A DNA stretch of 3,412 bases. It comes from Escherichia phage BZ13. A program made the translations under genes and the position numbers. The DNA is taken from the sequence record FJ483837.1, one strand, 5' to 3'. Numbering within the stretch: position 1 is the first letter of the stretch; every line of letters starts with the position of its first letter. Under the pieces are notes generated by a model. It worked only from the letters and a program-made list of their open reading frames with translations, was not told the DNA's origin and searched no databases. Shown piece by piece: positions 1-3,412 of this stretch.

Positions 1-82
1 GTTTTGCAAGCGACTCATTTCTGCAGTCTTTTCACCATGCCGTTAGGTTTAGATGACGGTATATCCATATACCGGAGGATCT
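1..82 (+). other. 5' untranslated leader, probably 5'-truncated
   Basis: No convincing ORF before the maturation gene; the frame of the maturation ORF is closed by TAG at 50-52. The window begins GTTTTGC rather than the GGG expected at the 5' end of MS2-like genomes, suggesting missing 5' nucleotides. Confidence 0.5.
57..74 (+). promoter_or_regulatory. Stem-loop next to the maturation-gene ribosome binding site
   Basis: CGGTATA (57-63) is the exact reverse complement of TATACCG (68-74), loop TCCA (64-67). The 3' arm abuts/overlaps the Shine-Dalgarno GGAGG (74-78) upstream of ATG 83. Functional role is inferred by analogy to structure-controlled maturation-gene translation in MS2. Confidence 0.35.
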
Positions 83-1255
83 ATGTTTCCGAAGTCGAAT
101 ATAGACAGAAATTACAAGGTTACACTTATATCTTACGACGAGAAAGGGAAGCTTGTTTCCGACGACTCTTTCGAGCAAGTCGAAAACTATCTCTTTCAAA
201 ATCGTTCGAATACGTATAAACCCGGTTATATCCGTCGTGACTTCCGAAGACCAACGAACTTTTGGAATGGCTTTCGCTATTTCAATCAGCCAGTTGGTAC
301 CTTCACTCGGAAACTCTCTGATGGTGGGAGACAAGTTGCTGATTATGGCATCGTGAACCCTAATAAGTTCACGGGCAACAGCCAGCACTTGGGGGACAAC
401 ATGGTTATTTACCCTGGTCCCTTTTCTATTAATATTGATCACCGAGCTTCTGTCGAAGTCCTCAATAAACTTTCGCAATCAAACCTCAATATTGGGGTTG
501 CAATTGCTGAAGCTAAGATGACTGCTTCATTACTCGCTAAACAATCAATAGCTCTCATCAGAGCCTACACTGCTGCAAAGCGCGGTAAATGGCGAGAGGT
601 GCTTTCTCAGCTCCTCATCTCCGAACACCGTTTCAGAGCTCCTGTTAAGGATCTCGGAGGTCGATGGCTCGAACTGCAGTACGGTTGGTTACCTCTTATG
701 AGCGATATGAAAGCTGCATATGATTTGCTTACGCAAACCAAACTGCCTGCTTTCATGCCCTTGAGGGTTACCCGTACCGTTGGCGGAACGCACAATTATA
801 AAGTGCGCAACGTCGAATCTGCAGGGGATACTTGGTCCTATAGCGATCGTTTGTCGGTGAATTACCGAATATGGTATTTCATTTCCGATCCACGGCTCGC
901 ATGGGCTAGTTCCCTTGGGCTTCTAAACCCTCTAGAAATCTATTGGGAGAAGACGCCTTGGTCTTTCGTCGTTGACTGGTTCTTACCTGTTGGTAATCTT
1001 ATAGAAGCCATGAGTAATCCTCTTGGCCTCGATATTATTTCCGGCACGAAGACCTGGCAACTCGAATCAAAACTTAATGCGACGCTTACAGCTTCGGGTT
1101 GGTCTGGAACTGCAAAGTTATCTGCATACGCGAAAGCATATGACAGGTCAACTTTCTACTCCTTTCCAACTCCTATGCCTTATGTGAAATCCCCACTTAG
1201 TGGGCTTCACTTAGCGAATGCATTAGCCTTAATCAACCAACGCCTGAAAAGGTAA
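83..1255 (+). CDS. mat: Maturation (A / assembly) protein, 390 aa from ATG 83; in-frame alternative start at ATG 53 (400 aa)
   Basis: Long + strand ORF ending TAA 1253-1255. GGAGG at 74-78 lies 4 nt upstream of ATG 83; ATG 53 has only a weak AGG upstream. The translation contains blocks recalled from the MS2 A protein (e.g. [16 protein letters not shown] vs MS2 [16 protein letters not shown]; [16 protein letters not shown] vs DARLAWLSSLGILNPL; SFVVDW; C-terminal ALALI-QRL). First gene of the canonical levivirus order. Confidence 0.88.
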
Positions 1256-1271
1256 TAATGGAGTTAGCCAT

Positions 1272-1664
1272 ATGGCAACTTTACGCAGTTTCGTACTCGT
1301 CGATAATGGCGGTACGGGGAATGTTACTGTCGTTCCTGTTAGCAATGCCAACGGCGTCGCTGAGTGGCTTTCTAATAACTCGCGCAGTCAAGCTTATCGC
1401 GTGACTGCCAGTTATCGTGCGTCAGGCGCGGACAAGCGCAAGTACACCATCAAACTTGAAGTACCGAAAATCGTTACTCAAGTTGTTAACGGTGTCGAGC
1501 TGCCTGTTTCCGCATGGAAGGCTTATGCCTCTATTGACCTGACCATCCCGATCTTTGCTGCAACTGACGATGTGACTGTTATTTCCAAGTCACTCGCTGG
1601 TCTGTTCAAAGTTGGGAACCCTATCGCTGAAGCTATCTCTTCGCAGAGCGGCTTCTACGCGTAA
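1272..1664 (+). CDS. cp: Coat (capsid) protein, 130 aa including initiator Met
   Basis: ORF 1272-1664 with GGAG (1260-1263) 8 nt upstream of the ATG. The translation (MATLRSFVLVDNGGTGNVTVVPVSNANGVAEWLSNNSRSQAYRVT...IPIFAATDD...GNPIAEAISSQSGFYA) is plainly homologous to the MS2 coat (ASNFTQFVLVDNGGTGDVTVAPSNFANGVAEWISSNSRSQAYKVT...) and, from memory, nearly identical to the group II phage GA coat. Mature length of 129 aa matches MS2/GA coats. Confidence 0.95.
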   Translation: MATLRSFVLVDNGGTGNVTVVPVSNANGVAEWLSNNSRSQAYRVTASYRASGADKRKYTIKLEVPKIVTQVVNGVELPVSAWKAYASIDLTIPIFAATDDVTVISKSLAGLFKVGNPIAEAISSQSGFYA

Positions 1665-1855
1665 TGGGTCTGAAAGCAAAACATAAGGAAAACCTATGTT
1701 CCGATTCACAGAGATCGAAAAGACTCTATGTATGGATCGCACTCGCGATTGTGCTGTCCGATTTCACGTCTATCTTCAGTCATTGGATATGGGGTCTTCT
1801 GATCCTCATTCTCCAGACTTTGATGGACTTGCCTACCTTCGTGATGAGTGTTTAA
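1664..1855 (+). CDS. lys: Lysis protein (MS2 L-like single-gene lysis protein), 63 aa, +1 frame overlapping coat stop and replicase 5' region
   Basis: ATG 1664-1666 shares its A with the coat stop codon TAA 1662-1664 (UAAUG). Basic N-terminus (KAKHK...RSKR) is followed by a hydrophobic segment LYVWIALAIVLSDFTS that closely matches the MS2 L segment LYVLIFLAIFLSKFTN, including the conserved Leu-Ser dipeptide (codons at 1754-1759). Position between coat and replicase in a different frame is canonical for MS2-like phages. Confidence 0.8.
   Translation: MGLKAKHKENLCSDSQRSKRLYVWIALAIVLSDFTSIFSHWIWGLLILILQTLMDLPTFVMSV
1681..1699 (+). promoter_or_regulatory. Translational operator hairpin (coat-protein binding site) containing the replicase start codon
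   Basis: ACAUAAGGAAAACCUAUGU: stem 1681-1685 paired with 1695-1699, unpaired A at 1686, G1687-C1694 and G1688-C1693, loop AAAA 1689-1692. The replicase AUG (1696-1698) is in the 3' arm. Same architecture as the MS2 operator ACAUGAGGAUUACCCAUGU (7 bp stem, bulged A, 4-nt loop), with A rather than U at loop position -5. Confidence 0.8.
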
Positions 1856-3294
1856 CTAAACATCCTTCACTAGGAAACAGTAATTCGGATGCACGCCGTA
1901 AGGAATTGGCATATGCCAAACTTATGGATAGTGATCAAAGATGCAAAATCCAAAACAGTAACGGATACGACTACTCTCACATCGAAAGTAGCGTACTGAG
2001 TGGTATACTCAAGACTGCTCAGGCCCTTGTGGCGAACTTGCTTACGGGTTTTGAATCTCACTTCCTGAACGATTGTTCATTCTCCAATGGAGCCTCACAA
2101 GGGTTCAAGTTGCGGGATGCAGCGCCGTTTAAGAAGATCGCTGGGCAAGCAACCGTTACAGCTCCTGCTTATAACATTGCCGTGGCCGCCGTTAAAACGT
2201 GCGCGCCGTGGTATGCTTATATGCAGGAAACGTATGGCGATGAAACCAGATGGTTTCGTCGGGTATACGGCAACGGTTTGTTTTCTGTTCCGAAGAACAA
2301 TAAAATAGATCGGGCTGCCTGTAAGGAGCCTGATATGAATATGTACCTTCAGAAGGGGGCGGGATCTTTTATAAGAAAACGCCTTCGCTCCGTCGGTATA
2401 GATCTTAACGATCAAACGTGCAATCAGGAATTAGCCCGACTTGGCAGCATTGATGGTTCACTCGCTACTATTGATCTTAGTAGCGCTAGTGATTCTGTCT
2501 CTGACCGCCTTGTCTGGGATTTACTTCCGCCACACGTTTATTCATACCTCGCTCGCATCCGTTCATCGTTCACTATGATCGATGGTCGGTTGCACAAGTG
2601 GGGCCTGTTTTCTACTATGGGAAACGGCTTTACATTCGAACTCGAGTCCATGATTTTCTGGGCTTTGAGTAAGAGTGTTATGCTGTCCATGGGTGTTACT
2701 GGCTCATTAGGCATCTACGGTGATGATATAATCGTCCCCGTTGAGTGTGCCCCAACTCTCCTTAAGGTACTATCCGCTGTGAACTTTCTTCCTAATAAGA
2801 AGAAGACGTTCACTACGGGTTACTTTCGTGAAAGTTGTGGTGCTCACTTCTTTAAAGGTGCCGACATGAAACCTTTTTACTGCAAGCGGCCAATGGAAAC
2901 CCTTCCCGATGTCATGTTGCTATGCAACAGGATAAGGGGTTGGCAGACCGTTGGTGGAATGTCAGATCCGCGGCTCTTTCCTATTTGGAAGGAGTTTGCT
3001 GATATGATTCCGCCGAAGTTTAAGGGTGGATGCAACCTGGATCGCGATACTTACCTCGTTTCACCGGATAAACCTGGTGTCACATTGGTTCGAGTCGCTA
3101 AGGTACGTTCTGGTTTTAACCATTCGTTCCCGTACGGCCATGAAAATGGTCGCTACGTCCACTGGTTGCATATGGGATCGGGAGAAGTTCTCGAGACCAT
3201 ATCCTCCGCCAGGTTTAGGTGCAAACCTAACTCGGAATGGAGAACACAGATCCCTCTATTTCCTCAGGAATTAGAGGCCTGCGTTCTCTCCTGA
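1696..3294 (+). CDS. rep: RNA-dependent RNA replicase, beta subunit (532 aa)
   Basis: Long + strand ORF ending TGA 3292-3294. Catalytic YGDD motif at nt 2716-2727 within GIYGDDIIVP; AAGGA (1685-1689) lies 6 nt upstream of the ATG. Last and largest gene of the levivirus order, with length close to the MS2 replicase. Confidence 0.95.
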   Translation: MFRFTEIEKTLCMDRTRDCAVRFHVYLQSLDMGSSDPHSPDFDGLAYLRDECLTKHPSLGNSNSDARRKELAYAKLMDSDQRCKIQNSNGYDYSHIESSVLSGILKTAQALVANLLTGFESHFLNDCSFSNGASQGFKLRDAAPFKKIAGQATVTAPAYNIAVAAVKTCAPWYAYMQETYGDETRWFRRVYGNGLFSVPKNNKIDRAACKEPDMNMYLQKGAGSFIRKRLRSVGIDLNDQTCNQELARLGSIDGSLATIDLSSASDSVSDRLVWDLLPPHVYSYLARIRSSFTMIDGRLHKWGLFSTMGNGFTFELESMIFWALSKSVMLSMGVTGSLGIYGDDIIVPVECAPTLLKVLSAVNFLPNKKKTFTTGYFRESCGAHFFKGADMKPFYCKRPMETLPDVMLLCNRIRGWQTVGGMSDPRLFPIWKEFADMIPPKFKGGCNLDRDTYLVSPDKPGVTLVRVAKVRSGFNHSFPYGHENGRYVHWLHMGSGEVLETISSARFRCKPNSEWRTQIPLFPQELEACVLS

Positions 3295-3343
3295 TAGTAT
3301 CAGGACCTCCCCGGATGGGGTGGGTGTGACCGAAAGGCCACTA

Positions 3344-3360
3344 TGGGGGTGAATCCCCCA
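3344..3360 (+). other. 3' UTR hairpin (6 bp G/C-rich stem, UGAAU loop)
   Basis: UGGGGG (3344-3349) pairs with CCCCCA (3355-3360), loop 3350-3354; exact complementarity read from the sequence. Confidence 0.6.
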
Positions 3361-3375
3361 CCGCCCAAAAGGCGG
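3361..3375 (+). other. 3' UTR hairpin (5 bp stem, CAAAA loop)
   Basis: CCGCC (3361-3365) pairs with GGCGG (3371-3375), loop 3366-3370. Confidence 0.55.
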
Positions 3376-3380
3376 TTTTA

Positions 3381-3407
3381 GGTGACTAGTTTGCTTGGCT
3401 AGTCACC
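3381..3407 (+). other. 3'-terminal hairpin preceding the single-stranded ACCCA tail
   Basis: GGTGACTAG (3381-3389) is the exact reverse complement of CTAGTCACC (3399-3407), loop 3390-3398; followed by ACCCA (3408-3412). Analogous to the terminal hairpin of the MS2 3' domain. Confidence 0.65.
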
Positions 3408-3412
3408 ACCCA

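Follow-up and report, generated by a model that had tools for sequence, protein, structure and literature searches.

The 5' end of this phage genome raises the question of where the maturation gene starts and what controls that start. The stretch of DNA analysed here (the window; 3,412 nt, one strand, 5' to 3') carries two in-frame ATG codons, at 53 and 83, with a hairpin between them. A preliminary description of the sequence had left the choice between both codons open, had suspected that the 5' end was truncated, and had likened the hairpin to the structure-gated initiation of phage MS2.

The maturation protein and the replicase (532 aa) encoded by the window are exact matches to the BZ13 proteins ACT66717.1 and ACT66720.1, respectively, which belong to a record of 3412 nt. 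By megablast, the window shares 94.5% nucleotide identity with GA (X03869, 3466 nt; window 3-3412 corresponding to GA 54-3466), 94.3% with BZ13 strain DL20, and 85-86% with KU1 and BZ13 strain T72. The layout is of the levivirus type, maturation - coat - lysis (overlapping) - replicase, with GA-like sequences, and both the gene order and the protein lengths (390, 130, 63, and 532 aa) equal those of BZ13/GA. In its leader the window differs from BZ13/GA as follows: it is without the first ~51 nt and without 2 nt at 8-9, in the W-arm loop, and has A53 instead of the majority G53. The window is F-specific RNA coliphage BZ13 (Emesvirus japonicum, group II, GA-like), almost certainly strain DL10: the two protein accessions directly precede those of T72 (ACT66721-24, FJ483838), and by elimination DL10, listed as FJ483837 in PMC3499819, is the genogroup II strain of that laboratory left over. 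The genes and the 3' end are located as follows.

83-1255, + strand: maturation (A) protein gene, 390 aa from ATG 83, which is taken as the true start.
1272-1664, 1664-1855, and 1696-3294: the other open reading frames of the window.
3405-3412, + strand: intact 3' terminus, ACCACCCA.

The 63-aa lysis reading frame (1664-1855) spans the coat/replicase junction, as it does in the GA annotation. Rfam searches with the window and four relatives (E ≤ 1) yielded no family for the levivirus 5' UTR; the sole related hit was a sub-threshold match to the MS2 operator in the replicase-operator hairpin region (window about 1678-1700), obtained in KU1 only (23 bits versus a gathering score of 40).

For comparison of the leader we used 12 independent ENA/Logan assemblies whose encoded proteins fall into the same clusters. 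Seventeen aligned group II leaders, the window counted in, formed the base for the conservation and pairing counts, and as a pairing control the partners were slid along the alignment. Two contig ends carried library artefacts that were trimmed before structures were counted: Nextera transposase sequence AGATGTGTATAAGAGACAG in L013 (1-20), and the SISPA primer GTTTCCCAGTCACGATA followed by a random 9-mer in L020 (1-26). Protein and DNA-pattern scans of viral_contigs returned GA itself and two 5'-less fragments, a scan of metagenome_contigs with the conserved S-arm pattern gave no match, and a final contig look-up added no further leaders. A curated alignment of the levivirus leader has already been published (PMC4615214).

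The window begins GTTTTGC and ends ACCACCCA. Complete genomes of this group start with GG(G)... and end with ...ACCACCCA, the 3' signature being stated in PMC3499819; the window possesses the 3' but lacks the 5' terminus, which is a property of the record and does not speak against its membership. The counterparts of window nt 1 are GA nt 52 and KU1 nt 53 (in the GA alignment, window nt 3 falls on GA nt 54), and both genomes reach 51-52 nt further 5', beginning GG. Eight of the 12 contigs likewise carry conserved sequence, 16-53 nt of it, on the 5' side of window nt 1. Among them, the leader of L011 is the longest; it reaches GGGUAGCGCCCC..., and the sequence preceding its homologue of window nt 1 is (UU)GGGUAGCGCCCCUUUCGGGGCGCUGCUUUCAUCCUUGAAGGCGCUAGGAAU. 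By the GA-like count the missing segment comprises 51 nt, by the KU1 count 52. Genogroup II genomes are 3458-3486 nt long (PMC3499819), so 3412 nt fits an incomplete record. The record is truncated at the 5' end only, by ~51 nt, and its 3' end is complete. The suspected loss of tens of nucleotides was thus borne out against GA, KU1, and eight assemblies, and alignment to reference genomes, which the preliminary description had proposed as a check, places the true 5' end with its GGG start 51-52 nt upstream of window nt 1.

The remaining leader can be described in terms of the cloverleaf with West, South, and East arms that was established for MS2 (Groeneveld 1995) and is reported to be conserved in KU1 and GA, both of which had entered the original phylogenetic comparison (PMC4615214). 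The corresponding features of the window are listed below.

1-31, + strand: West (W) arm remnant, with an apical hairpin (4-7/10-13) and the 3' strand (10-31); the partner 5' strand lies in the missing ~51 nt.
32-56, + strand: South (S) arm (32-36/52-56 and 39-41/46-48), containing AGG 45-47, TAG 50-52, and the apparently spurious ATG 53-55.
53-55, + strand: upstream in-frame ATG, predicted not to be a start codon; GTG in 14/17 leaders and out of frame in 6/17.
57-74, + strand: hairpin assigned to the East (E) arm, 7 bp (57-63/68-74) with the loop UCCA, adjoining the Shine-Dalgarno (SD) sequence on its 5' side.
74-80, + strand: SD sequence GGAGG (74-78; GA RBS 127-131) and long-distance strand GAGGAU (75-80), which pairs with AUCCUU in GA-like relatives.

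With the arms in place, it is apparent that the window opens halfway through the W arm. Because the replicase of leviviruses starts synthesis at 3'-terminal C residues, plus strands begin with runs of G, which counts against the reading that the window start is the real 5' terminus of the genome and that the strain has a leader of 82 nt. The record itself reads that way, and that of T72 is likewise short; however, the closest relatives (94-96% identical) continue with conserved sequence from window nt 1 up to the GGG start, a molecule starting inside the W arm would be without the upstream complementary sequence (UCS) and the 5' hairpin, both of which are conserved across groups I and II, and the genogroup II genome lengths point in the same direction. 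We consider a genuine 82-nt leader extremely improbable and treat the record as 5'-incomplete.

The 5' ends of several related records have peculiarities of their own. The T72 record (FJ483838), labelled 'complete genome', is shorter still, its nt 1 being the homologue of window nt 37. In the 'complete genome' of DL20 (FJ483839), positions 1-84 equal MS2 nt 1-82 plus two extra T in the T-run and are joined to GA-like sequence at a shared ACCATG; this MS2/group II chimera is either a laboratory artefact or a recombinant. Positions 1-40 of GA, sequenced in 1986, are unlike all other GA-like leaders in the 5' hairpin and in the UCS (CACCCUU versus CAUCCUU), so that pairs are broken and the GA UCS has one mismatch to the SD strand; these deviations are probably errors in the old sequence. 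The window itself reads GCAAGCG around positions 8-9 where all relatives have GCATAAGCG or GCAAAAGCG. The 2-nt deficit would leave the W-arm apical hairpin with a sterically impossible 2-nt loop; as it is located in the first 16 nt, it may stem from a primer or from low-quality sequence at a read end.

TAG 50-52, ATG 53-55, AGG 45-47, GGAGG 74-78, and ATG 83-85 were all found at the positions reported previously, and the two ATG codons share a frame: the ORF 53..1255 would encode 400 aa, and 390 aa from position 83. The annotated starts of GA (136, RBS 127-131), KU1 (137), DL20 (129), and T72 (47) are homologues of ATG 83 and give 390 aa each, and automatic gene calls on 12/12 assemblies start at the same codon. 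Residue 1 of the MS2 maturation protein falls opposite window Met-11, encoded by ATG 83, in a global MAFFT alignment only; the N-terminal third of these proteins is divergent and was left unaligned by BLASTP and PDB phmmer. The MS2 start, GUG 130, has been determined experimentally.

The pattern of variation separates the two codons sharply. Position 53 is G in 14/17 leaders, resulting in a GTG codon; the three leaders with A are those of the window, KU1, and DL20. In 6/17 leaders (DL20, L011-L014, L017) the hairpin loop contains one inserted U, which puts codon 53 out of frame, and that frame ends after 23 aa. Between 53 and 82, four sites vary, all of which would change an amino acid if the region were coding, while none of the 10 would-be third positions varies. 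By contrast, 24 of the 30 third positions are variable in the first 30 codons from 83, and across the whole maturation gene 71% of the 384 variable sites are at third codon positions. Coding-type variation starts exactly at 83. The strength of the putative SD sequences differs as the preliminary description had proposed, with a weak AGG before ATG 53 and a strong GGAGG before ATG 83: the best anti-SD duplex before ATG 83 reaches -9.5 kcal/mol, within the top 1.4% of window positions, and that before ATG 53 reaches -3.1 kcal/mol, a value equalled or beaten at 35% of window positions.

Translation from ATG 53, alone or besides ATG 83, would yield a 400-aa maturation protein from the longest in-frame ORF, and 11/17 leaders have a GTG or ATG here that is followed by an open frame. 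However, the scarcity of A53, the frame-breaking insertion, the lack of third-position changes, the poor anti-SD duplex, and the position of the MS2 start all stand against such a product; in addition, the codon is buried in the S-arm stem, and the 400-aa protein found no match in a collection of about 15 billion sequences. A conserved in-frame start, an SD sequence, and coding-type variation, the marks of an N-terminally extended protein, are all absent at codon 53. Initiation there is barely credible, and the ambiguity of the start is only apparent, since annotation, MS2 alignment, variation pattern, and SD strength agree on ATG 83. On this comparative evidence, the maturation protein is predicted to start at AUG 83 with the SD sequence GGAGG 74-78, and AUG 53 represents a non-conserved base variant within the S-arm stem that is presumably not used.

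Another AUG, at window 37-39, is invariant in the 15/15 leaders that cover it, and the equivalent MS2 site reads ACCAUGG. As a gene start it was rejected: it has no SD sequence (+0.9 kcal/mol), and the ORF that it opens varies in length between 28 and 106 aa in the relatives.

Folds of the window alone were non-significant (z = -0.3 for 1-100 and +0.1 for 1-140) and were not used, because the 5' partners are missing. The full leader of KU1, in contrast, folds into the cloverleaf with z = -4.6, that of L011 with -64.5 kcal/mol and z = -5.6, and that of MS2 with z = -4.7. All three share a 5'-terminal hairpin, a UCS paired to the SD region, and three arms enclosed by the UCS-SD pairing. Across the 17 leaders, 97% of the cells at cloverleaf pairs are paired, compared to 35-43% with partners slid. 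The UCS-SD helix, which could be scored in 9-10 relatives, is 98% paired and shows a double change at window position 80 (A-U 7, U-A 2); the window has the GA-like U80 that matches the UCS AUCCUU. Only the SD-side strand of this helix is present in the window; the UCS itself is absent. In the relatives the S and W arms are 95-100% paired (W arm 97.4%, with pairs taken from the L011 and KU1 folds), and the S-arm pair 35/53 is C-G in 11, U-A in one (KU1), and other in two. In the window, the S arm has a C35.A53 mismatch and the W arm is half present. Each covarying pair rests on one or two lineages only, because group II leaders are very similar. A UCS-sequestering hairpin, GCUUUCA-UCCU-UGAAGGC, forms part of the predicted MFE structure of L009, and in the relatives it is 93.7% paired, with no double changes.

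The 7-bp hairpin between the two ATGs was confirmed. Positions 57-63 (CGGTATA) are the exact reverse complement of 68-74 (TATACCG), with the loop TCCA, and the structure touches the SD sequence in that the stem ends with G74, with which the SD sequence begins. The hairpin exceeds chance expectation: its folding energy is -7.7 kcal/mol (z = -2.07), and 7/200 shuffles were as good. Perfect 7-bp hairpins with loops of 3-8 nt are expected 1.3 times per shuffled window, or ~0.03 times per 85 nt. The covariation analysis of this stem that had been suggested at the outset was carried out on the 17 leaders: the stem is 100% paired, with one compensatory change, A63G+U68C in GA (A-U 16, G-C 1), and one pair-adding insertion. 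The latter is the additional U at window 63/64 in the six leaders in which codon 53 is out of frame. It behaves as a variant of RNA structure and not of coding, because it adds an eighth U-A pair and leaves the loop UCC, as in the MS2 E arm. By its position and conservation, the hairpin 57-74 corresponds to the East arm of the levivirus 5'-UTR cloverleaf.

Could this hairpin itself be the translational gate, occluding the SD sequence locally so that its melting sets the level of initiation? G74 is common to stem and SD sequence, and the isolated 50-90 fold adds a helix, 50-54/79-83, over the start codon. However, only 1/5 SD bases lies in the stem. The additional helix was rejected: it shows no covariation, as position 53/80 is A.A, G.A, or G.G in KU1-like strains and T72, and it clashes with the covarying S arm and the UCS-SD helix. 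The E arm and the UCS-SD pairing coexist in full-length leaders, and deletion of the UCS or destabilisation of the long-distance UCS-SD pairing raises maturation-protein synthesis in MS2 (PMC4615214). We consider it very unlikely that the hairpin acts as the gate. The preferred candidate for the gate is the UCS-SD pairing, with the E arm as a structural arm adjoining it.

Kinetic gating of this kind has been studied experimentally in MS2, including arm swaps with KU1 (Groeneveld 1995, Poot 1997, van Meerten 2001, summarised in PMC4615214), and these MS2 and KU1 experiments suggest that it may also operate in the phage analysed here. In the complete genome, the UCS (AUCCUU, about nt 31-36) would pair with GAGGAU, which directly follows the E arm at window 75-80, and would thereby close the ribosome-binding site at equilibrium. 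In nascent plus strands, a metastable hairpin would sequester the UCS and delay this closure, and the delay would allow ribosomes to load and a short burst of maturation-protein translation to occur. The window alone cannot show this mechanism, because the UCS and the metastable hairpin both lie in the missing 5' segment. Of the earlier proposal of structure-gated initiation as in MS2, the part that stands is that the group probably uses such gating; the hairpin 57-74 is most likely not the gate, and the UCS and the metastable hairpin are located in the absent segment.

Full-length group II leaders resemble that of MS2 in having a 5' hairpin, a UCS paired to the SD sequence, and W, S, and E arms, with the E arm directly 5' of the SD sequence and a predicted UCS-sequestering hairpin. 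However, the leader sequences are not alignable with MS2. The E arm has 7-8 bp in group II, where it abuts the UCS-SD helix of 6 bp (AUCCUU/GAGGAU), and 5 bp in MS2. The spacing from SD sequence to start is 4 nt with AUG in group II, compared to 8 nt with GUG in MS2.

The A that turns codon 53 into ATG affects the predicted structure. A53 breaks the conserved S-arm pair C35-G53, for which KU1 compensates with U35 but the window and DL20 do not, and it was found in 0/12 independent assemblies. In the predicted S and E arms, A53 changes the energy from -17.4 to -10.7 kcal/mol, a cost of about 6.7 kcal/mol. When the leader was rebuilt from the 51-nt consensus and the window, the cloverleaf was the MFE structure with G53 (-63.8); with A53 it reached -57.1 versus an MFE of -58.4, i.e. 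1.3 kcal/mol above the MFE. A 9-bp hairpin, 37-45/54-62 (AUGCCGUUA/UGACGGUAU), is predicted at -10.8 kcal/mol and cannot form together with the S and E arms. Its two strands can pair in each of the 15-17 relatives, and U44C in L011 turns a G.U into a G-C pair; its sequence is invariant, so that the comparison neither supports nor excludes it.

A53 could be either a real polymorphism or a cloning or sequencing artefact. If it is real, the equilibrium fold of the window strain would be less certain. The energy calculations allow the reading that A53 is a genuine polymorphism of DL10 and DL20 which destabilises the S and E arms, with the competing hairpin isoenergetic and the cloverleaf above the MFE, and which makes the maturation-gene gate leakier; we regard this as unlikely. 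If true, A53 would be a mutation by which a kinetic RNA switch is tuned in nature, and which incidentally creates an in-frame AUG.

Taken together, the observations are very probably explained by a 5'-incomplete record of a group II BZ13 phage with its start at AUG 83, in which the hairpin 57-74 would be the East arm of the known cloverleaf and the UCS-SD pairing would serve as the gate. Phage, gene start, and regulatory structure are already known from earlier descriptions, the biology having been established since 1995-2001; what is left of the finding is a record without its 5' end, an upstream ATG that is spurious, and an arm belonging to a known cloverleaf. Its importance is mainly one of annotation. 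The annotation of the maturation gene at ATG 83 (390 aa) should be kept, and the 3412-nt record should be handled as one that lacks about 51 nt at its 5' end. Studies of RNA structure or regulation in the leader must put the missing segment back, since the UCS, the kinetic-trap hairpin, and the 5' hairpin that replication requires are all located there. With the UCS/SD covariation and the pair-adding loop insertion, the 12 assemblies add new comparative evidence, modest in extent, in favour of the group II cloverleaf already published.
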